The position numbers and the translations under genes were made by a program. The notes beneath the pieces were generated by a model. It did no database searches, was not told the DNA's origin, and worked only from the letters and a program-made list of their open reading frames with translations. From Escherichia phage arall, in sequence record MN850584.1: DNA of 64,000 bases; one strand, written 5' to 3'. Position 1 is the first letter of the stretch. The number at the start of each line of letters is the position of its first letter. Of the stretch, positions 2,937 through 50,101 are shown piece by piece.

Positions 2937-3106
2937 GTTATTATGTTGTACCTTATGCCAATAAGTGGAGAGTAAGAGAAACTTGTTTTCTGTTCTCCTG
3001 GTGGGCTACATTCGGAGATGGCTGTGGAAATGATACAGGGAAGCCTGTAGAGTATGACACAAAAGAAGAATGTGAACAGTGGATAAAATTAACACAAAGA
3101 TGTTGA
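2933..3106 (+). CDS. small Cys/Trp-rich protein (57 aa)
   Basis: ATG overlaps stop of upstream gene (ATGA); below ORF-track size cut-off; translated by eye. Confidence 0.35.
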   Translation: MSYYVVPYANKWRVRETCFLFSWWATFGDGCGNDTGKPVEYDTKEECEQWIKLTQRC

Positions 3107-3159
3107 CACGATCTTAACTTCTTGTTAGTATCAATGTGTACTAACGATAAGGAGGGTTT

Positions 3160-3384
3160 ATGAAGTCTGTAAACAAGTTGCAACAATTTTTGTTATCAAC
3201 AGCAATCTTTTTGCTTTTGTTAATTGGTATTCTGTATGGTGCATCTAACTTATACAATCTACATAATGATGTAGAACAGAATAAAGAGAAGTGCATCATT
3301 CTAAAACACAAGAAACAAGCAGAAGATTTCTTAAAGAATAAGTGTTACAACTACATTGATTATGAGGAGACAAACAATGATTAA
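3160..3384 (+). CDS. small membrane protein
   Basis: 74 aa; hydrophobic segment LLSTAIFLLLLIGILYG; RBS AAGGAGGG upstream. Confidence 0.55.
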   Translation: MKSVNKLQQFLLSTAIFLLLLIGILYGASNLYNLHNDVEQNKEKCIILKHKKQAEDFLKNKCYNYIDYEETNND

Positions 3385-3619
3385 AGAATTAGGTATGCGA
3401 GTATACAGTGAGTGGACTCCAAGCAATGGCCCAGGAGTTGTTGCAGCTAAATGTATCAATGGTCGTATTGAGTACCTGGAAGGGTATGAAGATAATGAAG
3501 AATTAGTAGATTATGCTAAATCTTTTATTGAAGATGATACAGACTTTATTGTATTATATGATACAGGAGAGTTAGAGTATGGATATGATGGAGATGGGGA
3601 TATCTTTGAACTTCAATAA
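3377..3619 (+). CDS. hypothetical acidic protein
   Basis: ORF track 3356..3619 trimmed to ATG 3377 after GAGGAGACAAACA. Confidence 0.55.
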   Translation: MIKELGMRVYSEWTPSNGPGVVAAKCINGRIEYLEGYEDNEELVDYAKSFIEDDTDFIVLYDTGELEYGYDGDGDIFELQ

Positions 3620-3826
3620 GAGTAGTAAGTAAGGTATAAAGAGTATATAGTTAGTTATAGAGTTAGTAACATTACATATACTCTTTCCATGTATAACATG
3701 GAATATTCTCTACCTCGCTATCGCTCGGTATATAAGATTAGGGTAGCATGTTTTTTACGAAAAGTAAAACTGTTTATACCGATTGATAGCAGGTTTTTAA
3801 TAGATTCTATCTGTGAGGAGTAGAAA

Positions 3827-4045
3827 GTGTACAAATTATATAAAGGAAAAGATAAGTTTACGGGTAATACATCTGGTTTCTATGTAACACCACGCGGCGT
3901 TGCCGTATTTGATTGGATTCCTGGTACTCCAGATCGTGAAATGATCTCTCTTGTAAAACTGTCGGAACAAGAGTACACTTACGGTGACATTACAACATTC
4001 TATTCTCGTGCAGAAAATCCAAAACTGATTGCGGAGTGGGAATAA
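3827..4045 (+). CDS. hypothetical protein
   Basis: 72 aa; GTG start after GAGGAG; follows 200-bp promoter-like intergenic region. Confidence 0.5.
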   Translation: MYKLYKGKDKFTGNTSGFYVTPRGVAVFDWIPGTPDREMISLVKLSEQEYTYGDITTFYSRAENPKLIAEWE

Positions 4046-41223: not shown

Positions 41224-41598
41224 TTAATAGTTAACACGTTTAATTTCAACACCATAGGATGCAATAAAATTTTCCTTAGCTAACATATATTTACCAGCAG
41301 CAGAAGGATTTGATGTATGAACATAGATAGTTTTAAGAGCATCCCATTCACCTGCGTACAACATACATTCTACGTCTAAGAACGCATGATATCCTTCTTG
41401 ATCTTCTCCAAGATCATTATCGAAGTGTATCTCTGAAATATTATTGAAATTATCTTCATCTGAAACAAAAGATGACCAATCCCCAAAAGATTTTAACCAA
41501 ATGGCATCCTCATAACCATAATCTTTAGGATCTCTTAAATCGTCTAACCAAAGAATTTTAGCCACTATCAACCCCCTTCCTGTTTCTCTTCTTTCCAA
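41224..41598 (-). CDS. hypothetical protein
   Basis: 124 aa ORF. Confidence 0.55.
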   Translation of the reverse strand: MERRETGRGLIVAKILWLDDLRDPKDYGYEDAIWLKSFGDWSSFVSDEDNFNNISEIHFDNDLGEDQEGYHAFLDVECMLYAGEWDALKTIYVHTSNPSAAGKYMLAKENFIASYGVEIKRVNY

Positions 41599-41759: not shown

Positions 41760-42037
41760 TATTTATTCCTTTTGTTGTTGATCACATCTAAAGCTGTGTA
41801 AGGTTTGTTTGTACCACTGTATTCAAGAATAATTGGTGCATGTTCATAGACAAACTCAAAAGTACCATACACAGAATCTGCAACTGAAATAAGCATTTCA
41901 GTGCCTTCATCGTTCTTAATTAATGAAAACCTTGCCCCTGGTTTATTGAGCACTTCATATTTCTTACCTACTGTCAGCAAACCTGAATACCATTCATTTT
42001 GCACAACAGACAAACACTTCAGGTAGGTTTTTCTCAT
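41759..42037 (-). CDS. hypothetical protein
   Basis: 92 aa ORF. Confidence 0.5.
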   Translation of the reverse strand: MRKTYLKCLSVVQNEWYSGLLTVGKKYEVLNKPGARFSLIKNDEGTEMLISVADSVYGTFEFVYEHAPIILEYSGTNKPYTALDVINNKRNK

Positions 42038-42375
42038 TTCTTTTTGCTCCTTCTTTTAGGCTTCTCATATAAACCTAACACAGCCGACTCTTTTGCACAA
42101 ATAGGAACTGATTTCATTCCTCGTTTTTTAGCTTCTGGTAGATTCAAAACCCACCAGCCAAACCAATACAATTCATCTTCTGTGAAAGGATCTGCCATAG
42201 GATCTGCTTCACGTTCTTCAAATTTAGCAAGAGCTTCTTCTATCTTTTCTATTGGAGTATCAAAGACAAAAGCCTCTGTGTCAAATTTTTGTTTCTTAGG
42301 AGCGGCCTTTGCCGCCCCATCTTTAGATGCGTGCTTTGTTACGGATCGCTTCTTCGGTGTTTTCGCCATCAACAA
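42034..42375 (-). CDS. lysine-rich basic protein (possible DNA-binding)
   Basis: 113 aa; KKRSVTKHASKDGAAKAAPKKQK and KPKRRSKKK tails. Confidence 0.5.
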   Translation of the reverse strand: MLMAKTPKKRSVTKHASKDGAAKAAPKKQKFDTEAFVFDTPIEKIEEALAKFEEREADPMADPFTEDELYWFGWWVLNLPEAKKRGMKSVPICAKESAVLGLYEKPKRRSKKK

Positions 42376-42562
42376 CCTCCATACGGTGTAAGAAATCTTG
42401 CTGGAATCGCCAATACTGTTGACCAGTCCTTACATCTTCGTAGATCACAACAGGATCAAATACTTTAGATACACCCGCTGGTTTAGGAAAGCCAACTACA
42501 CGATATAAACCACCTTTGCTAATACAAGAATATGTTACATCAGTTAAAATTTCTTTTTTCAT
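42323..42562 (-). CDS. hypothetical protein
   Basis: 79 aa ORF; 3' end overlaps next gene. Confidence 0.4.
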   Translation of the reverse strand: MKKEILTDVTYSCISKGGLYRVVGFPKPAGVSKVFDPVVIYEDVRTGQQYWRFQQDFLHRMEVVDGENTEEAIRNKARI

Positions 42563-42756
42563 TTTTTAATAAACTCCAAAACAGGTACGTGATCAGCAGT
42601 CAAAGTTACACAATTGTAACTTACCTTTTCAACTTCAGAGAATGCTTCAACCCAAAGTAAGAAATTCTCTTTAGCTTCTTCATAATTCAATGTTGACTTA
42701 ACAACATGGAACTCACCAAGAATTACTCTATAGATTGTTTGCATAGTTTGATTCAT
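42559..42756 (-). CDS. hypothetical protein
   Basis: 65 aa ORF. Confidence 0.45.
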   Translation of the reverse strand: MNQTMQTIYRVILGEFHVVKSTLNYEEAKENFLLWVEAFSEVEKVSYNCVTLTADHVPVLEFIKK

Positions 42757-42822
42757 TTATTTTTCCTTTGTTTAGAATGTGTTAAACAATCGCAAATGCT
42801 TGTGACGCACTTTGTGATCCCA

Positions 42823-43191
42823 CTAATTAACGTCAGCACTATGATTGTTGAGAGTATAGGATACTCCATCGCCCAAGTCAACATGAATCTCAACTCCTAA
42901 CTGTCTTTCTAATGGTAAACGTTTTGAGAATTGATAATTACAAAGTTTGCAATCTAAGTCAAGCAACTCATGTTTGCTTAAGCCTGGAATGATAACTTTG
43001 CTTCCCACTGTCCACTCAATACCTTCAAAGTTATCTCTTCTTTTCAAAATGTCAAGTAAGAAGATGATTTGTTGCCATTCCGTAGACAAGTCTTCTTCAT
43101 AGAACGCAGAACAAAAAGTTTTATCATCGTAGAAAGCATACATTATGCTTCCATCTATTGTTTCACTTCTAACGTAGCGTGTGACCCTCAT
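42823..43191 (-). CDS. hypothetical protein (first gene of - block)
   Basis: 122 aa; RBS AGGAGGG upstream. Confidence 0.55.
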   Translation of the reverse strand: MRVTRYVRSETIDGSIMYAFYDDKTFCSAFYEEDLSTEWQQIIFLLDILKRRDNFEGIEWTVGSKVIIPGLSKHELLDLDCKLCNYQFSKRLPLERQLGVEIHVDLGDGVSYTLNNHSADVN

Positions 43192-43532
43192 TATTCCCTC
43201 CTATACGGCTCTGTAACGAGCTAATGGCCTTTAAGATATGCAATCACCTTACCTCACAGTAAAACTCGTTACAATCGTTTTTAGGAGGTTTAGGTTGTAC
43301 TTAAAAATAATCTAAAAAGGTGTTGACAAACGCAAAAAAGTATGCTACCCTAACCCCCGAAAAACGCCGAGCGCAGCGAGGGGGTGTTATCTAATCTTGT
43401 GATACATGATCTAACAGACAACTGAGTAGTCTACATATAGCACTATGTTATGTCTATAATACTAACATACATGCTCTATACTAACAATAGATTCTTTATT
43501 AATTTTATTATTAATTAAATAATAAATATCTA

Positions 43533-43561
43533 TTGACTTTAGATCTATCTGTATGTAGAGT
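43533..43561 (+). promoter_or_regulatory. sigma70-like promoter (TTGACT-N17-TAGAGT)
   Basis: -35/-10 hexamers with 17-nt spacer downstream of AT-rich UP-like region. Confidence 0.45.
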
Positions 43562-43600
43562 AGAAAACATAAAGTCCGAACTCAACTAAGGAGATAAACA

Positions 43601-44494
43601 ATGAAAGTTAGTATTCTACATGGTGTTGACTGTTATGTTACTGATGTAGACGTTAAAGTCTTTACATTCTCTGGTGGAGAACAACATGTTCAACTAGATA
43701 CGAATCTATCAGGTTTCAATCATGCTACAGACAGAATCTTACTCTCTTTAGAAGTAAGATCTGCTAAAGACTTGATGACTTTGGTTATGACTAAGAATGC
43801 ATTGGACAATATGCTATATCATAAACCATATTGTGTTGATTTGCTCATGTTGTATGTGCCATATGCACGACAAGACAGAGTGTGTGAACCTGGGGAAGCA
43901 TTCGGAGTTAAAGCATTTGCTTCTATAATTAATTCATTAAATTTCTCACGTGTTATCGTTGCTGATCCACATAGTGATGTTACTCCAGCGGTGTTTGACA
44001 GACTCTGTGTAATACCTCAAGAAGAGATTGCTTACGAAACTTTAAAGTGGAAGTTACGTATGGAGAATTTTGCTCTTGTTAGTCCTGATGGTGGTGCTCT
44101 TAAGAAAATATTTAAATTATCTAAGAAAATGTCTTTAGATGTGTTCTGTGCAGAGAAGGTTAGAGATACTGCAACAGGTGCTATTGTTCGTACAGACATT
44201 TCTGTACAGGATTTCAATAAGCGTAACCTGATGATCGTAGATGATATCTGTGACGGCGGTAGAACTTTTATTGAATTGGCTAAAGTGCTACGTGCTCGTA
44301 ACGCAGGTAAGATTGAGTTATATGTTACACACGGTATCTTTTCTAAAGGTCTTAAAGAGTTAAGTGAGCACTTTGACTGCATTCATTCTCTTAATGTGTG
44401 GGAAGATAACATCCAAGAAGATTCCGGTGTTCTTGTTAAGAATCAGTCAGATTTGCAACAACAAATTGTATCTCCATACGTGTGGAATTTTTAA
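43601..44494 (+). CDS. PRPP-synthetase-like phosphoribosyl pyrophosphokinase (candidate ADP-ribose pyrophosphokinase, Adps-like)
   Basis: 297 aa; VPYARQDR, VSPDGGALKK, IVDDICDGGRT motifs; RBS AAGGAGA. Confidence 0.8.
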   Translation: MKVSILHGVDCYVTDVDVKVFTFSGGEQHVQLDTNLSGFNHATDRILLSLEVRSAKDLMTLVMTKNALDNMLYHKPYCVDLLMLYVPYARQDRVCEPGEAFGVKAFASIINSLNFSRVIVADPHSDVTPAVFDRLCVIPQEEIAYETLKWKLRMENFALVSPDGGALKKIFKLSKKMSLDVFCAEKVRDTATGAIVRTDISVQDFNKRNLMIVDDICDGGRTFIELAKVLRARNAGKIELYVTHGIFSKGLKELSEHFDCIHSLNVWEDNIQEDSGVLVKNQSDLQQQIVSPYVWNF

Positions 44495-44504
44495 ATAATA
44501 AGTG

Positions 44505-44533
44505 TTGACAATAGGGAGTATGCTTAGTAAGAT
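44505..44533 (+). promoter_or_regulatory. sigma70-like promoter (TTGACA-N17-TAAGAT)
   Basis: consensus -35 with 17-nt spacer. Confidence 0.45.
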
Positions 44534-44565
44534 ACTCCCACACTAACAAACAAGGAGACATAACT

Positions 44566-46299
44566 ATGAATATTTTTGCACCTTTTGCTACTGATTGGTA
44601 TAAACCTGGTCACAAGCAGATGTACAACCAAAATACAAAACTCATTTTCTCTAATTTAACTCCTCGTAATGATAAAAACTTTGCACACTATGCAGATCGT
44701 GAAGCACGTGGTGTAATTGTTTTAGGTATTCGTCGAGCAGTTACTGATGCTCTTGTAACTATGTGGGATAGCTTCTTTAAAATGTCTCGTAGTGCAGCAG
44801 TAAATAAGTTTTATCGTATGTCTAAAAATGCATTAGGTGCTTCTTCTCCTTCTGCTGAATGTTGGGGAGAATTGCACGATTTAGGTTATCTTCCGCTGGA
44901 AGTTCGATCTCTGCCAGAAGGTGTTTTGTGTCCTATTGGTGTTCCTGTGTTTACTGTGCATAATACTTTAGAAAAATTCTTTTGGTTAACTAACTATGTG
45001 GAAACACTATTGTCAGATGAAACTTGGAAGACAATGACTAATGCTACAGCAGCTTTTCAGTATAAGCGTATTGCTATGGCATATGCGATGGCAACGTGTG
45101 ATAATATTGATCACGTTAACTTCCAGTGTCATGATTTTAGCCTACGTGGTTTAAGTAATATTGAAGATGGTTATAAGAGTGGTATCGCTCATTTGGCATC
45201 GTTCACAGGCACAGATAATATTCTGGCTATTGAAACTGTGCATGATTATTATGGTATTGATTATGATCAGTTTGTTGCAGGTTCTATTCCGGCAACAGAA
45301 CATTCAGTAGCAACGACTAACATTGGAGCTATTGTTGAAGATCTGAAGAAACATTTCCCACATCTTAAAGATGATGTTGATGGGCTTCGTTATGTAGCAG
45401 AGAAAGAGTTTCTTCGCCGCTATATTGAAGAAATTGTTCCAGAAGGTTTTTGTTCATATGTAGCAGATTCTTATGATTACTGGGCTGTCTTGACTCGCAT
45501 TCTGGTAGAATTGAAAGAGTCCATTATGTCACGAAATGGTCGTCTTGTTATTCGTCCAGATTCAGGAGATCCGGTTAAAGTTGTTGCAGGATACAATGTT
45601 GAATCTTTTGCTAACTATGAAGACCTTTTAAATAATGGTATTGCTACAGCCACTGAAGTAGTTCATTTGGCTGATGTTAATAAGTATTACAATGTTCTTC
45701 AGGATTGCAGTGTTGCTGATTGTATTGATGAAACTTATGAGATTCCTTATTGTGAAGCAGTAGGTTCTATTCAAATCCTTTGGGAAGTGTTTGGTGGTAC
45801 TATCAACCGAAAAGGCTACAAGGTTCTTGATCAGCACATCGGTATGATTTATGGTGATTCTATTACTGTTGAACGAGAACACGAGATCTTACGCCGACTG
45901 AAGAAGAAAGGTTTTGCAGCTTCCAATATTGTATTTGGTGTTGGTAGTTATACTTATCAGTTCAATACACGAGATACTTTTGGTTTTGCTGTTAAAGCAA
46001 CAGGTAGTATCATCGGTGAACACGAAATTTTGGTAAGTAAGGAGCCTAAAACTGATCCTGGTAAACGCTCTGCAAAAGGTTTTATTAAGGTTGTTAAGGA
46101 TACAAATGGTAAACTTTCTCTTGTGGATAATCTTTCTTTTAAAGATATTCAAGATGAAGACAATGAGTTAAAAGTTATCTTCAGGGATGGTACGGTTATT
46201 ACACCACAAGTAGAAGGACGTGATGAAACATTTACTGATATCCGCAACCGTGTTGATGTAGAGGTTCTTCGTACTATGGGAACCATCCAGGTTGACTAA
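44566..46299 (+). CDS. nicotinamide phosphoribosyltransferase-like (NadV/NAMPT family; candidate Namat)
   Basis: 577 aa; N-terminal FATDWYKPGHKQMY and overall NAMPT-like organisation; RBS AAGGAGA. Confidence 0.8.
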   Translation: MNIFAPFATDWYKPGHKQMYNQNTKLIFSNLTPRNDKNFAHYADREARGVIVLGIRRAVTDALVTMWDSFFKMSRSAAVNKFYRMSKNALGASSPSAECWGELHDLGYLPLEVRSLPEGVLCPIGVPVFTVHNTLEKFFWLTNYVETLLSDETWKTMTNATAAFQYKRIAMAYAMATCDNIDHVNFQCHDFSLRGLSNIEDGYKSGIAHLASFTGTDNILAIETVHDYYGIDYDQFVAGSIPATEHSVATTNIGAIVEDLKKHFPHLKDDVDGLRYVAEKEFLRRYIEEIVPEGFCSYVADSYDYWAVLTRILVELKESIMSRNGRLVIRPDSGDPVKVVAGYNVESFANYEDLLNNGIATATEVVHLADVNKYYNVLQDCSVADCIDETYEIPYCEAVGSIQILWEVFGGTINRKGYKVLDQHIGMIYGDSITVEREHEILRRLKKKGFAASNIVFGVGSYTYQFNTRDTFGFAVKATGSIIGEHEILVSKEPKTDPGKRSAKGFIKVVKDTNGKLSLVDNLSFKDIQDEDNELKVIFRDGTVITPQVEGRDETFTDIRNRVDVEVLRTMGTIQVD

Positions 46300-46605: not shown

Positions 46606-46716
46606 ATGTCTACAGAAATTATTTTTGGCTTATCTGTTTTTATTGCTATTGTATCTTTTGTATGCGGTTATACATTAGGGTACAGATCAAGAAAAAATAT
46701 TGTAAAAACTAGTTGA
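46606..46716 (+). CDS. small membrane protein (36 aa)
   Basis: RBS AAGGAAACAG; hydrophobic IIFGLSVFIAIVSFVCGY; below track cut-off. Confidence 0.3.
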   Translation: MSTEIIFGLSVFIAIVSFVCGYTLGYRSRKNIVKTS

Positions 46717-47045: not shown

Positions 47046-47121
47046 GGTTCCATAGCTCACTGACGAGAGCGCACACCTCATAAGTGTCGAGGGCAGGGAT
47101 TGTAACCCTGGGGAACCACCA
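47046..47121 (+). tRNA. tRNA-Met/Ile2 (anticodon CAT), non-canonical T-loop ATTGTAA
   Basis: hand-folded cloverleaf: acceptor GGTTCCA/GGGAACC (one A.G), D-arm GCTC-ACTGACGA-GAGC, anticodon loop CTCATAA, T-stem CAGGG/CCCTG, CCA encoded. Confidence 0.55.
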
Positions 47122-47152
47122 TTTAAAAGGAGGTGCTATGCATCTCCTATAT

Positions 47153-47238
47153 GCAAGTGTGGTGGAATTGGTGATACACATTGTGCTTAAAACGCAACGC
47201 TTAAATGCTTGAGGGTTCGAATCCCTCCACTTGCACCA
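47153..47238 (+). tRNA. tRNA-Leu (anticodon TAA)
   Basis: acceptor GCAAGTG/CACTTGC, anticodon loop CTTAAAA, long variable arm, T-loop TTCGAAT, CCA encoded. Confidence 0.75.
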
Positions 47239-47240
47239 AC

Positions 47241-47346
47241 GCCTAGTAGGGTATTTGGTAATTCCGAGGCCATCAAAGCCTGAAAAATATGTTAGACCGC
47301 TTTGTCTAACTAAATACGAAATATGGTTCGATTCCATAACTAGGCT
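47241..47346 (+). other. atypical over-long tRNA-like gene (106 nt)
   Basis: perfect 7-bp acceptor GCCTAGT/ACTAGGC and canonical T-arm TATGG-TTCGATT-CCATA, but about 30 nt too much between them, including a 7-bp hairpin GTTAGAC-CGCTTT-GTCTAAC. Confidence 0.35.
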
Positions 47347-47379
47347 TCAATTTAAATAGTAATTTTAGTAAAAAATATC

Positions 47380-47408
47380 TTGACATTTACTTAGTTTTTT
47401 GTTATAGT
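47380..47408 (+). promoter_or_regulatory. sigma70 consensus promoter (TTGACA-N17-TATAGT)
   Basis: near-consensus hexamers ending 12 nt upstream of tRNA-like gene at 47420. Confidence 0.55.
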
Positions 47409-47419
47409 CGTTATGAAAA

Positions 47420-47501
47420 CGGGGTGTATCTCACCTGACTTCTAATCAGGCGTTAACCGAGTAATTGGAGTATGCAGGTTCGAATCCTGTCACCCCGGCC
47501 A
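47420..47501 (+). other. atypical tRNA-like gene with anticodon hairpin TCT (Arg-type) and no recognisable D-arm
   Basis: perfect acceptor CGGGGTG/CACCCCG + CCA, T-arm GCAGG-TTCGAAT-CCTGT, anticodon arm CCTGA-CTTCTAA-TCAGG; only 7 nt (TATCTCA) where D-arm should be; 23-nt variable region with GNRA-capped stem. Confidence 0.4.
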
Positions 47502-47519
47502 AAAAGTTTTAAAAACTAC

Positions 47520-47549
47520 TTGACAAGCAAGATAGTTTTATGTTAGATT
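47520..47549 (+). promoter_or_regulatory. sigma70-like promoter (TTGACA-N17/18-TTAGAT)
   Basis: hexamers upstream of tRNA-Ser. Confidence 0.4.
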
Positions 47550-47564
47550 TAAAGTATGATAACT

Positions 47565-47654
47565 GGAAGGTAGGGCGCAGCGGTGCGCAACCAGGTTTGA
47601 ACCCTGGCCCATTGTAGCGATACGGTGATGGTTCGACTCCATTATCTTCCTCCA
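47565..47654 (+). tRNA. tRNA-Ser (anticodon TGA)
   Basis: acceptor GGAAGGT/ATCTTCC, anticodon arm CCAGG-TTTGAAC-CCTGG, long variable arm, T-loop TTCGACT, CCA. Confidence 0.7.
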
Positions 47655-47660
47655 AATTCA

Positions 47661-47825
47661 ATGAGTGATTTTATGAATTATAAAACTATTGGACAGGTTG
47701 TTACCGGAGTTAAGATTGTAAATAATAAAGTTGTTTATGAGTATTCTAATCTTCAACAATCTGAAGATGGTAAGAATATTCGTATGGTAAAAGCAGAACA
47801 AAAAGATTCCGGTTGTTTTGAATAA
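47661..47825 (+). CDS. small hypothetical protein inside tRNA cluster
   Basis: ORF track 47625..47825 trimmed to first ATG after tRNA-Ser 3' end; no clear RBS. Confidence 0.3.
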   Translation: MSDFMNYKTIGQVVTGVKIVNNKVVYEYSNLQQSEDGKNIRMVKAEQKDSGCFE

Positions 47826-47833
47826 TTAAGAAC

Positions 47834-47919
47834 GGTAGATTGGTGAAATGGTAGCCACAACAGTTTGCTAAACTGTCGTCGGAAACGGCGTGTAGGTTCA
47901 AGTCCTACATCTACCGCCA
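47834..47919 (+). tRNA. tRNA-Ser (anticodon GCT)
   Basis: acceptor GGTAGAT/ATCTACC, anticodon loop TTGCTAA, long variable arm, T-loop TTCAAGT, CCA. Confidence 0.7.
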
Positions 47920-48054
47920 AGTTATCTTTAATGTAGCTTGTAATCTTACTTTAGCAGAGTAAATCTTCGGCAAGTGGCGGTAACCACTTTACCGATACCC
48001 CAATACTTCATAGCTAAGTGCCGCAAACACTGGCTATTTTAAAGATAATTTTAT

Positions 48055-48129
48055 ACATCGTTAGCCAAGCGGTAAGGCACTTGACTTTTAATCAAGGGAG
48101 CGAAGGTTCGAATCCTTCACGATGTACCA
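48055..48129 (+). tRNA. tRNA-Lys (anticodon TTT)
   Basis: acceptor ACATCGT/ACGATGT, D-arm GCC-AAGCGGTAA-GGC, anticodon loop CTTTTAA, T-loop TTCGAAT, CCA. Confidence 0.75.
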
Positions 48130-48134
48130 AACAC

Positions 48135-48221
48135 GTAGGTATCGCATAGCGGCAATTGCTGGAGACTGTAAATCTCCTGCCCTTCTGGGCTTCGTTGGTT
48201 CGAGTCCAACTACCTGCACCA
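48135..48221 (+). tRNA. tRNA-Tyr (anticodon GTA)
   Basis: acceptor GTAGGTA/TACCTGC (U2.G71), anticodon arm GGAGA-CTGTAAA-TCTCC, long variable arm, T-loop TTCGAGT, CCA. Confidence 0.7.
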
Positions 48222-48228
48222 AATTAAA

Positions 48229-48313
48229 GATGGATTGGCCTAGTGGTTGGGCGACGGACTGTTAATCCGTGAACGAAAGTTCTAGCAAGGTTCAAATCCT
48301 TGATCCATCGCCA
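48229..48313 (+). tRNA. class-II (long variable arm) tRNA with anticodon GTT (Asn codons) in a Ser/Tyr-like body
   Basis: acceptor GATGGAT/ATCCATC, 3-bp D-stem GCC/GGC, anticodon arm ACGGA-CTGTTAA-TCCGT, 15-nt variable arm GAACGAAAGTTCTAG, T-loop TTCAAAT, CCA. Confidence 0.5.
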
Positions 48314-48320
48314 GAATTAT

Positions 48321-48397
48321 GGACTTGTAGAGTTAAGGTAAAACCCCAGTCGCCAAGAGGCTTCTGGAATTGCAGGTATCGAATCCTGTCGAGTCCA
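48321..48397 (+). pseudogene. degenerate tRNA-like element (possible tRNA pseudogene)
   Basis: acceptor-like GGACTTG/CGAGTCC and T-arm-like GCAGG-TATCGAAT-CCTGT (8-nt loop); no D-arm or anticodon arm found. Confidence 0.3.
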
Positions 48398-48403
48398 AGT
48401 ATT

Positions 48404-48478
48404 GCTCCTATCGTATAACGGCTATTACGGTTGCCTTGTAAGCAACTTATCAGGGTTCGAGTCCTTGTGGGAGCACCA
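48404..48478 (+). tRNA. tRNA-Thr (anticodon TGT)
   Basis: acceptor GCTCCTA/TGGGAGC, anticodon arm GTTGC-CTTGTAA-GCAAC, T-loop TTCGAGT, CCA. Confidence 0.75.
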
Positions 48479-48495
48479 ATTTTAACTCTAAAGGA

Positions 48496-48825
48496 GTGTA
48501 TGTGACAGAAAAAGAGTTAGAGAAATATTTTAATATCAATGTTTTCGATGGTTTTGATGATATTGAAGATGTTGAAAGATATTATGAAGTAGAGTTAGAT
48601 AAGGATAACATTGTAATTCTTTCTGCCACTTATGATTGTGCATATTATGAAGGTGAATCTCACGTTTATTTTTATGATATGAAAACATCTTTGTTTTATG
48701 AAGTACACGCATATCATTGTTCTTGTTATGGTTTAGAAGGTCAGTGGGAACCTGAAGAAATAGGTGATTTGGATTTTACTATTGCATATCTAAACAGACG
48801 TGGTGCATCTACTATTTTAAAATAA
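48496..48825 (+). CDS. hypothetical acidic protein inside tRNA cluster
   Basis: 109 aa; GTG start at RBS AAGGAG (alternative GTG 48502). Confidence 0.5.
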   Translation: MYVTEKELEKYFNINVFDGFDDIEDVERYYEVELDKDNIVILSATYDCAYYEGESHVYFYDMKTSLFYEVHAYHCSCYGLEGQWEPEEIGDLDFTIAYLNRRGASTILK

Positions 48826-48839
48826 ATATCAAAAGCCTC

Positions 48840-48869
48840 TTGACAAAGTGGCTAATAATATGTTAGAGT
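48840..48869 (+). promoter_or_regulatory. sigma70-like promoter (TTGACA-N18-TAGAGT)
   Basis: hexamers upstream of tRNA-Gly. Confidence 0.4.
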
Positions 48870-48880
48870 AATATTGTTAA

Positions 48881-48955
48881 GCGGGTATAGTGTTAATTGT
48901 AGCATATGAGGTTTCCACCCTCCAGGTGCAGGTTCAAGTCCTGTTACTCGCTCCA
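48881..48955 (+). tRNA. tRNA-Gly (anticodon TCC)
   Basis: acceptor GCGGGTA/TACTCGC, anticodon loop TTTCCAC, T-loop TTCAAGT, CCA. Confidence 0.65.
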
Positions 48956-49302
48956 AGATTATTTAAATGGAATCGCTAGAGAAAATTTCTCTTTTCGCTC
49001 ATGGTTTTCTCCTTCAAACTCTAGCGGTTCTTTTTAAGTGATTTTTAGTTTATTGGAGATTCACTGCCTTAGTATGAGCTAAAATCGAGGAGCCATCGAA
49101 CTGTCTGATTAATGATTTGCGAATCATTATAGTTTTAAGACCCCGGCAGTTTTATGGTGTACCTCTTGAATGTGAATGATGACGGGTTTATGGTTATCCT
49201 GGTCGTTAAATATCCAAAAACCTATGTTCCCCTTGATGGCTTGCGCAGGCAATGCCAATAAGTCCTGCATTTTCATTTAAAAGAGAATTTATAATGGAAA
49301 AA

Positions 49303-49380
49303 GATGAACTTAAGTATGCTAAGCCTCTGGCTTCTGCTGCACGAAAAGCAGTTCGTCACTTTGTGGTAACACTGAAGTAA
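49303..49380 (+). CDS. very small ORF (25 aa) in structured noncoding stretch
   Basis: ATG 9 nt after AAGAGAA; MEKDELKYAKPLASAARKAVRHFVVTLK; speculative. Confidence 0.2.
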   Translation, partial: DELKYAKPLASAARKAVRHFVVTLK

Positions 49381-49385
49381 TTTAT

Positions 49386-49460
49386 TGGAGATTAGCCTAG
49401 TGGGAAGGCAACGGCCTTTGAAGTCGTGATGACTAGGTTCGATTCCTAGATCTCCAGCCA
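49386..49460 (+). tRNA. tRNA-Gln (anticodon TTG)
   Basis: acceptor TGGAGAT/ATCTCCA (U1-A72), anticodon arm ACGGC-CTTTGAA-GTCGT, T-loop TTCGATT, CCA. Confidence 0.75.
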
Positions 49461-49467
49461 AGATTTA

Positions 49468-49543
49468 CAGTGCGTAGCGCAGTTGGTAGCGTGGGAGCTT
49501 TGGATGCTTCGGGTCGCAGGTTCGAGTCCTGCCGCACTGACCA
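49468..49543 (+). tRNA. tRNA-Pro (anticodon TGG)
   Basis: acceptor CAGTGCG/CGCACTG (C1-G72), anticodon loop TTTGGAT, T-loop TTCGAGT, CCA. Confidence 0.75.
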
Positions 49544-49548
49544 AATTT

Positions 49549-49623
49549 GCAGAGATAGCTGAGACGGATTAGTGCTACCCTGAAAAGGTAGAAAGGATGG
49601 ATCGTTACCATCTCTCTGCACCA
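49549..49623 (+). tRNA. tRNA-Phe (anticodon GAA), non-canonical T-loop ATCGTTA
   Basis: acceptor GCAGAGA/TCTCTGC, anticodon arm CTACC-CTGAAAA-GGTAG, T-stem GATGG/CCATC, CCA. Confidence 0.6.
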
Positions 49624-49700
49624 AATAACACCATCCAAGGAGTAGACTTGGTTAACTGTCAATAGCACATTGAGGCTTCTTACAGTGGTGTACTTATTAT

Positions 49701-49785
49701 GGCTAAGTGGTGGAATGGTATACACGATACGCTTAGAACGTATTGCCCCAAGGGATTGTGAGTTCGAGTCTCACCTTAGCTACCA
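49701..49785 (+). tRNA. tRNA-Leu (anticodon TAG)
   Basis: acceptor GGCTAAG/CTTAGCT, anticodon arm ATACG-CTTAGAA-CGTAT, long variable arm, T-loop TTCGAGT, CCA. Confidence 0.7.
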
Positions 49786-49800
49786 AATTATTACAGATTG

Positions 49801-49879
49801 TGCGGGATAGAGGAGTCTGGTCGTCCTCGCCAGTTTCATATGCTGGAGATCATCGGTTCAAATCCGATTCCCGCCTCCA
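49801..49879 (+). tRNA. tRNA-Met/Ile2 (anticodon CAT)
   Basis: acceptor TGCGGGA/TCCCGCC (1-72 mismatch), D-arm GAGG/CCTC, anticodon arm CCAGT-TTCATAT-GCTGG, T-loop TTCAAAT, CCA. Confidence 0.6.
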
Positions 49880-49956
49880 ATAAATACCTCCCTTCTGGTG
49901 TAATGATTAAATTGCATTGACACTTCAAGGAACTCATAGCCGGGTAGATTTAAAAG

Positions 49957-50020
49957 AGTATGGTACTCAATATGGCTCCAAACCATAGATCAAGGGGTTC
50001 GATTCCTCACCTTGCTGCCA
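49957..50020 (+). other. short (64 nt) tRNA-like gene with anticodon hairpin CCA (Trp-type), no D-arm
   Basis: anticodon arm TATGG-CTCCAAA-CCATA, T-arm AGGGG-TTCGATT-CCTCA, 3' CCTTGCT-G-CCA pairs with AGTATGG (6/7); only 7 nt (TACTCAA) in D-arm position. Confidence 0.35.
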
Positions 50021-50025
50021 ATTAT

Positions 50026-50101
50026 TGTGGTATCGTACAGATGGTTAGTACACTCGACCGATAATCGAGAAACAACGGTTCGACTCCGTTTACCACGACC
50101 A
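50026..50101 (+). tRNA. tRNA-Ile (anticodon GAT)
   Basis: acceptor TGTGGTA/TACCACG, D-arm GTAC/GTAC, anticodon arm CTCGA-CCGATAA-TCGAG (C33), T-loop TTCGACT, CCA. Confidence 0.65.

Follow-up and report, generated by a model that had tools for sequence, protein, structure and literature searches.

The DNA analysed here is a 64,000-nt stretch of Escherichia phage arall (MN850584.1; hereafter the window), and the subject of this work is the 409-bp gap at positions 43192-43600 that separates its two main blocks of genes. The list of open reading frames (ORFs) shows a 35-kb leftward block that ends at 43191, where a minus-strand ORF starts, and a rightward block whose first ORF starts at 43601 on the plus strand. 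The phage is a phi92-like myophage (Justusliebigvirus, Stephanstirmvirinae) that is 98-99% identical over the window to phages alia and phi92, and in phi92 the same junction falls between gp106A (leftward) and gp107 (rightward, PRPS-like), where the annotation records ribosome-binding sites only. On the left, the first gene (42823..43191, minus strand, from the ORF list and the phi92 annotation) encodes a 122-residue homologue of gp106A with a Shine-Dalgarno sequence GGAGGG at 43201..43196; on the right, the PRPS-like gene has a Shine-Dalgarno GGAG at 43590-43593 and its ATG at 43601. The sign of the GC skew flips at the junction, the cumulative skew reaches its minimum there, and a complete genome of the genus has one other divergent junction besides this gap. 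A sequence-only reading of the window had proposed that the gap is a divergent promoter hub that might also hold operators or a replication origin. The hub is supported, as promoter-like elements are kept at this position across genera of the Stephanstirmvirinae and the left and right blocks are separated by it. We conclude that the region is probably an early-transcription control region at the main divergent junction, with four predicted sigma-70 promoters: P1 and P2, which point rightward, and PL1 and PL0, which point leftward.

The highest score in a promoter scan belongs to P1 (43323..43351, plus strand), a sigma-70-type promoter of the extended -10 class. It consists of a perfect -35 element (TTGACA, 43323-43328), a 17-nt spacer that ends in TGc (43343-43345) and a -10 element TACCCT (43346-43351), and is preceded by an A-rich stretch at 43301-43318. 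These elements agree with the features expected of an extended -10 promoter, namely a -35 near TTGACA, a spacer of 16-18 nt, a TGn motif, and T1, A2 and T6 in the -10 hexamer; transcription is predicted to start at about 43358-43360. Conservation was assessed by comparing four or five genera of the subfamily. Within the genus little can be learned about conservation, as the 54 GenBank phage records that match window positions 42000-45000 by megablast (among them Escherichia phages alia, phi92, VEcB and inny) are 95-99% identical to it. In Citrobacter phage Tr1 the match is confined to 43316-43522, at 70% identity, and a search with the Tr1 spacer region recovered Phapecoctavirus phages and Klebsiella phage KP2025 over only ~40-60 nt. 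That shared piece is the promoter-like element followed by a short G+C-rich motif, and the rest of the spacer region diverges. The sequence TGnTACCCTA together with a TTGAC(A/T) -35 is kept in Tr1, ukendt, AV125, KP2025, L124 and others, and the layout of P1, with a spacer of 17-18 nt, occurs in 14 of the 15 listed copies of what we call the cassette (promoter plus hairpin), the remaining copy, L112, having no recognisable -35.

The G+C-rich motif downstream of P1 is a hairpin (43354..43384, plus strand) whose conserved part spans 43367-43381 and comprises C43367, the sequence CGAGCGCAGCGAG (43368-43380) and G43381, with CGAGCGCAGCGAG beginning 16 nt past TACCCT. Its core, CGAGCG-N-AGCGAG, can be drawn as a closing C-G pair, tandem G.A/A.G mismatches, a G-C and a C-G pair, and a G-N-A loop that becomes G-N-N-A in copies with a two-base insert. 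The sequence-only reading had noticed a GC hairpin here, formed by CCCCC (43354-43358) and GGGGG (43380-43384). This pairing is present, but it is only the outer stem of the conserved tandem-G.A hairpin that follows P1, a promoter absent from that reading, and it occurs in this genus alone; the G-run that follows the core (43380-43384) varies among isolates from four to seven G, or reads GTGGGG (compared with L002, L026, L027 and L132). Twelve core positions are invariant in the 15 instances found first, although the searches required this core, and only the flanking stem is therefore informative for covariation. In this stem, 83% of the cells are paired across 31 distinct cassettes and none of 500 shuffles reaches the covariation score, whereas pairing drops to 29-47% in slid controls in which the partner was moved by 1-3 columns. 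The first flanking pair (columns 8-23) is CG in 16, AU in 11 and UA in 1 of the 31 cassettes. A like result was obtained for the stem in the first set of 15 cassettes, so that across sets 83-84% of cells are paired and 15-26 cells are changed on both sides. Because many of the pairs are G.U, which would be C.A mismatches on the other strand, the hairpin can be assigned to the sense strand downstream of P1. Given a start ~7 nt after the -10 element, some 0-6 nt would separate it from the 5' end of the transcript in every copy. In relaxed searches of Rfam the sole near match in the window was GA-cis (RF02987), over 43280-43395, at 21.3 bits against a gathering threshold of 34.7; at gathering thresholds the window contains only tRNAs. 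The other cassette copies and the chromosomal elements (see below) gave no match, and membership of the GA-cis family was rejected. The GC hairpin is also doubtful as a minus-strand terminator: the terminator-like match, CGCTGCGCTCGGCG followed by TTTTT, is a single site where shuffles give 0.4, and by eye it is without conservation in Tr1.

The cassette is sparsely repeated. A search of the complete genome of phage VEcB (148,885 bp) that tolerated one substitution still gave exactly three hairpins. All are preceded by TGCTACCCTA and a -35-like element, none is without a promoter motif, and nowhere else in that genome does the complete motif appear with TTGAC at the right spacing. All three copies have orthologues across genera, on contigs of other genera. 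Two of them lie in the window, copy A being P1 at the junction. Copy B (3714..3768, minus strand) has TTTACT at 3768..3763, a 17-nt spacer, TACCCT at 3745..3740 and the hairpin CGAGCGATAGCGAG at 3727..3714, and is placed antisense in a 207-nt gap between plus-strand genes at 3356-3619 and 3827-4045. As no ORF lies downstream of copy B, which points into the 3' end of the convergent gene, it probably makes a non-coding RNA. Within the region 3600-3768 (minus strand) its cassette is followed by a second hairpin, TTCCATG-N5-CATGGAA, which is shared as TT(T/C)CATG-N5-CATG(A/G)AA by the orthologues L168, L227 and L238. Copy B is a candidate source of a small RNA ~100-130 nt long. Copy C stands at the head of an mRNA for a small membrane protein, whose Shine-Dalgarno and ATG follow after ~90 nt. 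Downstream 7-mers common to the three copies (CTCTATA, ACTAAC) were considered as further shared elements and dropped, their support being marginal (P about 0.03).

Facing P1 is the leftward promoter PL1 (43459..43487, minus strand). The sequence-only reading had listed short direct repeats, CTATAATACTAACA at 43454-43467 and CTATACTAACA at 43476-43486. They are present, as two-copy families of 9-12 nt, but are most simply explained as two leftward extended -10 elements, since the repeated unit ATACTAACA reads TGTTAGTAT on the minus strand. PL1 uses the first copy of ATACTAACA: its -35 is TTGTTA (43487..43482), its 17-nt spacer ends in TGT and its -10 is TAGTAT (43464..43459), with TGTTAGTAT at 43467..43459. 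It scores 10 in the promoter scan and is predicted to start at about 43452. The same TGTTAGTAT also follows TTGACA-N17 at 3097-3131 on the plus strand. The second copy, PL2 (43478..43486, minus strand), lacks a -35 and has the A/T tract directly upstream. Equivalents of PL1, with TGTTAGTAT or TGTTACTAT and a TTG-type -35, are found in Tr1 (TTGTAA-N17-TAGTAT) and L124 (TTGATC-N18-TACTAT), and the distance between the -10 elements of P1 and PL1 is 107 bp in the window, 107 bp in Tr1 and 103 bp in L124, despite ~30% divergence of the sequence between them. The two thus form a convergent pair, of predicted activity, at a conserved short distance. The idea of a divergent hub accordingly stands for the region as a whole but not for its distal promoters, as P1 and PL1 face each other and are not back to back. 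Because they do so, their 5' leaders would overlap by ~94 nt. The spacer of PL1 contains, on the plus strand, TGCTCTATA (43472-43480), which is kept in Tr1 and L124 and differs at one position from TGCTCTTTA, the boxA sequence of rrn operons (consensus (C/T)GCTCTT(T)A). As GCTCT[AT]TA occurs only in cassette copy A, TGCTCTATA as a boxA is no more than a lead.

The proximal rightward promoter, P2 (43533..43561, plus strand), lies ~40 nt upstream of the PRPS-like gene and corresponds to the TTGACT-N17-TAGAGT promoter named in the sequence-only reading (TTGACT at 43533-43538, TAGAGT at 43556-43561). Promoters of similar sequence, TTGACA...TATGTTAGAGT, stand at 47520, 48840 and 53989, so that P2 represents a recurring type in the window; a matching promoter occupies the same position in L124, KP2025 and Tr1. 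Between PL2 and P2 lies a run of 35 nt composed solely of A and T (43495..43529), which ends 3 nt before the P2 -35 and contains the AT-rich tract noted earlier (43499-43527). It is the longest such run in the window, followed by one of 34 nt at 55645-55678. The second run is directly upstream of a TTGACA-N17-TAGACT promoter (run and promoter together span 55645-55710, plus strand) in the same layout as at P2, and since it too abuts a -35 element, a role as UP element would explain both runs. In the isolates inny, L026 and PD06 the tract is lengthened by one of two distinct tandem duplications, one of 11 bp and the other of 12 bp. From its sequence and position it looks like an UP element and spacer that is prone to insertions and deletions. 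One database record, ALITA (PP359570.1, represented by the end of L005 and the start of L004), is opened inside the tract, and ~30 nt of tract are missing from it, which fits an assembly break as the most likely cause.

On the left, PL0 (43235..43263, minus strand) appears to be the remnant of a proximal leftward promoter, with TTTACT at 43263..43258, a 17-nt spacer and CATATC at 43240..43235. Reading by eye, we find it degenerate in this genus and good in Tr1 (TTGACT-N17-TACCAT), KP2025 (TTGACA-N17-TATCAT) and ukendt (TTTACT-N17-TATCAT). PL0 sits between the arms of the 9-bp inverted repeat, TGTAACGAG at 43212-43220 and CTCGTTACA at 43265-43273, and this repeat, extended by pairing of CCUCC with the Shine-Dalgarno GGAGG of gp106A, generates a long leader hairpin (43197..43288, minus strand). 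The leader fold at 43189-43295 (minus strand) has a predicted free energy of -34.1 kcal/mol (z = -4.84; none of 200 shuffles is as stable), with boundaries that were picked after the repeat had been seen. It can form only in transcripts that start right of 43288; a short leader from PL0 is predicted to be unstructured, would lack the right arm and would leave the Shine-Dalgarno free. Equivalent leaders are unstructured in Tr1 (z = 0.0) and KP2025 (z = +0.6) and weakly structured in ukendt (z = -2.3). A conserved riboregulator that sequesters the Shine-Dalgarno was accordingly rejected, the structure being strong in this genus and absent in Tr1 or KP2025; it may matter in this genus and in long transcripts only, or be fortuitous.

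Taken together, these features suggest the following arrangement. The motifs and their places, their conservation across genera, the covariation of the stem, the copy number of the cassette and the fixed P1-PL1 spacing are observed, whereas every start site, the choice of polymerase, the interference and what the hairpin does are deduced from sequence. A proximal pair would consist of P2, rightward and fed by the UP-like tract, and PL0, leftward and weak in this genus. A distal pair would consist of P1, directed rightward, and PL1, directed leftward, with the -10 element of PL2 beside the latter. Within the ~94-nt overlap of the P1 and PL1 leaders the transcripts would be mutually antisense, each distal transcript would cross the opposing promoter, and the outcome would likely be transcriptional interference, antisense pairing or both, by which the relative output or the timing of the two early operons would be set. 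Transcripts from P1 would start, after no more than about 6 unpaired nt, with the conserved hairpin. Its action is most likely exerted in the RNA: it may shield the 5' end from decay or be bound by a specific factor. The region is otherwise largely ordinary; what is unusual is the promoter-hairpin cassette, its face-to-face partner and its presence in chromosomal elements, and the promoter-plus-5'-hairpin cassette is apparently undescribed.

Several observations weigh against this interpretation. The -10 element of P1, TACCCT, is unusual and at the same time invariant, and may be recognised by something other than, or besides, sigma-70. The search patterns required the hairpin core, so that its invariance arises partly by construction. 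PL1 is clearly conserved in three genera only, and phages like KP2025 and ukendt have no obvious equivalent. Its spacer, TATAGAGCA, is conserved as well, which is unexpected for a plain promoter and could reflect the plus-strand RNA signal TGCTCTATA instead. Consensus promoter-like sites are not enriched in the region (7, against 5.0 +/- 2.6 in shuffles), and literature searches found no promoter or transcriptome data specific to phi92-like phages. More generally, all of the motifs named in the sequence-only reading are present, with offsets of 1-2 nt (it had placed the inverted repeat at 43213..43273 and the GC hairpin at 43355..43386), and they are real but mostly unremarkable alone: of those listed only the A/T tract stands out against chance, and the others gain significance only through conservation in relatives.

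The suggestion that inverted repeats in the region are DNA operators of a phage regulator was considered for both the TGTAACGAG/CTCGTTACA pair and a 17-bp near-palindrome, AGACAACTGAGTAGTCT (43416..43432), that lies within the predicted overlap of the P1 and PL1 transcripts and is a candidate operator or small RNA hairpin. The arms of the pair flank the PL0 core with their centres 53 bp apart, about five helical turns, and TGTAACGAG occurs 3 times in the window where 0.38 would be expected. The 9-bp repeat is nonetheless at chance level, as 42 of 200 dinucleotide shuffles of the region (21%) contain a perfect inverted repeat that is 9 bp or longer and lies within 100 nt; other genera have no equivalent at the position, and the third TGTAACGAG copy, at 59602, is unpaired. 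The near-palindrome is part of a block, GATCTAACAGAC-ACTGAGT-GTCTA, which Tr1 has in nearly identical form, but the palindrome has no second copy in the window and is not kept in more distant genera. An operator regulon was rejected, since the 9-mer and the palindrome are both absent from the other promoters of the window. Pfam and PHROG searches find no DNA-binding domain among the neighbouring early proteins. Operators of this kind are thus very improbable. An origin of replication is improbable as well, although a specific version of it would be compatible with promoter function: RNA synthesis begun at P1, or at PL1/PL2, would run into the A/T tract, which would serve as the unwinding element, and an R-loop there would prime the leading strand. 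A promoter followed by an A/T-rich stretch is the layout of the transcription-primed origins of T7 and T4, and it is for this likeness that the idea stays, at low probability. In the T7 primary origin and in T4 oriF and oriG, a promoter is followed by an A/T-rich unwinding element; here one of the two longest A/T runs of the window begins ~137 nt downstream of the predicted P1 start, and an A/T tract is kept at the junction in all genera examined. Mini-hairpins of the GCGAAGC type are, moreover, known at the origins of single-stranded DNA phages. The cumulative GC skew minimum at the junction and the T7-like replisome of relatives such as rV5, with a DNA polymerase A and a gp4-like primase-helicase (PMC3606486), would also agree with an origin. 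But the skew switch coincides exactly with the change in gene orientation, to which the authors of the rV5 study likewise tie their skew changes (PMC3606486). The A/T tract tolerates duplications of 11-12 bp and, unlike those of the T7 and T4 origins, directly abuts the -35 element of another promoter. Copy C has no comparable tract after it and copy B is followed by only moderately AT-rich sequence. A candidate A/T-rich unwinding element does lie beside a promoter, downstream of P1, yet this is not specific, as the run at 55645 also precedes one, and the origin proposal is otherwise unsupported: the 409-bp region contains no DnaA boxes, no iterons and no direct-repeat family of more than two copies, and GATC is not enriched (2, against 1.6 expected).

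Two further explanations concern P1 and its hairpin. In one, which we consider doubtful, its product is a discrete small non-coding RNA, for instance an antisense RNA to the PL1 leader, and not an mRNA leader. At least one cassette, copy B, probably does make a non-coding RNA, the cassette of the chromosomal element is followed by ~700 nt of non-coding sequence, and P2, which adjoins the PRPS-like gene, could serve that gene alone. Against this, the plus strand has no predicted intrinsic terminator from 43358 to 43600, shuffled versions of the plus-strand RNA 43356-43480 fold as well as the RNA itself (z = +0.76), and copy C is clearly an mRNA leader. In the other, for which we likewise see only a small chance, the TGnTACCCT promoter and hairpin form a nut- or put-like element that is read by a specific factor to co-regulate three transcripts, and that has been copied by integrase-bearing elements of Citrobacter, Buttiauxella and Scandinavium to be switched on by a helper phage, which would make these elements satellites of the Stephanstirmvirinae. 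The cassette does resemble lambda nut, the rrn boxB-boxA-boxC leader and HK022 put in placing a hairpin right after an early promoter in few copies per genome, and copy A shows an rrn-like order of a hairpin and then the boxA-like TGCTCTATA ~110 nt downstream. It differs in that lambda boxB has a GNRA-like pentaloop, whereas the hairpin here has tandem G.A mismatches and a G-N-A or G-N-N-A loop, and in that the boxA-like motif has one mismatch and occurs in copy A only, with no downstream terminator predicted. An N-like protein was not identified, and no search aimed at N-like factors was made.

An early-transcription control region with facing distal promoters, the reading that we prefer, has partial counterparts in well-studied systems. 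The convergent promoters Pant/Psar of P22, which yield the sar antisense RNA, and pR/pL of 186 also act across a short distance, with mutually antisense transcripts and polymerases that cross the opposing promoter, as predicted here for a pair with 107 bp between its -10 elements and a ~94-nt overlap. Those pairs belong to temperate phages, have overlaps of 60-70 nt and have been shown experimentally, whereas the pair described here is predicted, belongs to a virulent myophage and differs in that each partner also has a second, proximal promoter. The predicted position of the hairpin, ~0-6 nt from the 5' end in every copy, is that of the 5' stem-loop of ompA-type messages, and a stem-loop placed near the 5' end is known to block 5'-end-dependent decay. 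Stabilisers of the ompA type need a stem and not a particular sequence, whereas the 12 invariant core positions of the cassette, required as they were by the searches, point to specific recognition. The 3' hairpin of GA-cis (RF02987) has the same design, Cc-GA-gc-GaAa-gc-GA-gG, with a loop of 4 nt there and 3 nt here. The PeSL cassettes of T4-type phages likewise combine a sigma-70-type early promoter with a stem-loop and are repeated in large virulent myophages. In PeSL, however, the stem-loop lies upstream of the promoter, serves as a terminator and occurs in many copies that border variable gene modules, whereas here it lies downstream, in three copies, each at a fixed orthologous position.

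The cassette is not confined to phages. Matches in scans of genome and metagenome collections are mostly due to chance (~120 expected in 596 Gb, 60 seen), and only those that also carry a -35 element were retained, giving 33 distinct instances. Five of these are on bacterial contigs: the chromosome of Citrobacter sp. OP27 and contigs of metagenome-assembled genomes assigned to Buttiauxella (two), Scandinavium and an unclassified bacterium. In all but the last, the cassette directly follows the same short coding stretch, ...MEELKKHV..., with which a tyrosine integrase gene ends in Citrobacter, and points into several hundred nt (~700) of repeat-rich sequence in which no gene is seen; beyond this, Citrobacter has small ORFs and a DUF5906 protein. 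The element (L261, 3430-5332, in Citrobacter sp. OP27; also L289, L299, L260, L076 and L178) looks like a small integrative element, perhaps a phage satellite of the Stephanstirmvirinae. Its RNA shares the second hairpin with phage copy B. It has no match in 5,426 complete Escherichia coli genomes, and a hairpin-binding protein shared by phage and element was rejected, since tblastn detected no protein common to the two near the cassettes.

Two other groups of contigs carry related sequences. In L012, L013, L014 and ~20 related IMG/VR contigs of unrelated viruses, TATACCCTATCCCCCCC(A/T)ACGAGCG(A/G)AGCGAGTGGG occurs as a divergent inverted pair ~100 nt apart, with the same order of TACCCTA, C-run, hairpin and G-run and without a TTGACA -35. 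In L016, L018, L021, L023 and ~15 similar contigs, the hairpin CCGAGCGATAGCGAGG immediately follows the stop codon of a conserved gene whose product ends in ...GFR(L/A)AC(Y)P; as TACCCT is coding there, the hairpin probably serves an unrelated use.

Phages of the phi92 type are widely isolated for therapy, and the literature searched contains no study of their transcription programme. If the arrangement proposed here is true, they would have four start sites at this junction, a face-to-face pair and, throughout the subfamily, a compact RNA motif on three transcripts of each genome; should its predictions fail, the region would be no more than an ordinary intergenic spacer rich in promoters. 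The presence of the cassette next to an integrase in enterobacterial chromosomes is also a lead to a possible new relationship between phage and satellite. The rightward operon opens with a PRPS-like gene (297 residues) that adjoins a NAMPT-like gene (577 residues; together 43601-46299, plus strand). The best matches of the NAMPT-like protein in the PDB are 9w5x, 9w5w and 9ke8 (E about 1e-118 to 1e-100). As the pair resembles the recently described phage counter-defence pathway of NAD+ reconstitution, NARP1 (Adps plus Namat), the hub probably times an anti-defence function.

The remaining observations concern the setting of the junction. The 409-bp region has no ORF longer than 25 residues, and small protein genes were rejected, as all ORFs are of 25 residues or fewer and the alignment between genera is full of insertions and deletions; the 'hypothetical protein' calls made here in some GenBank records are probably spurious. 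The junction was also rejected as a genome terminus: it lies at ~99 kb in the record of BME3, distant from the record ends, and the BME3 paper describes a 342-bp direct terminal repeat. The gp106A homologue belongs to a PHROG family of unknown function and has no Pfam match, and the neighbouring early proteins have no function assigned by Pfam or PHROG. Farther along the leftward block, an early gene (41224-41598, minus strand) encodes a cREC_REC domain (cyclic-phosphate processing receiver, PF20274, E = 3.9e-13). Within the NAMPT-like gene, the phi92 record has a 151-nt feature labelled 'hypothetical tRNA' (L001, 4659-4809), and neither ARAGORN nor Rfam finds a tRNA at the matching position of the window. 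Downstream of the rightward operon, 15 tRNA genes are clustered at 47046-50101 (plus strand), and strong promoters of the TTGACA...TATGTTAGAGT type are found amid this cluster, at 46713, 47520 and 48840.

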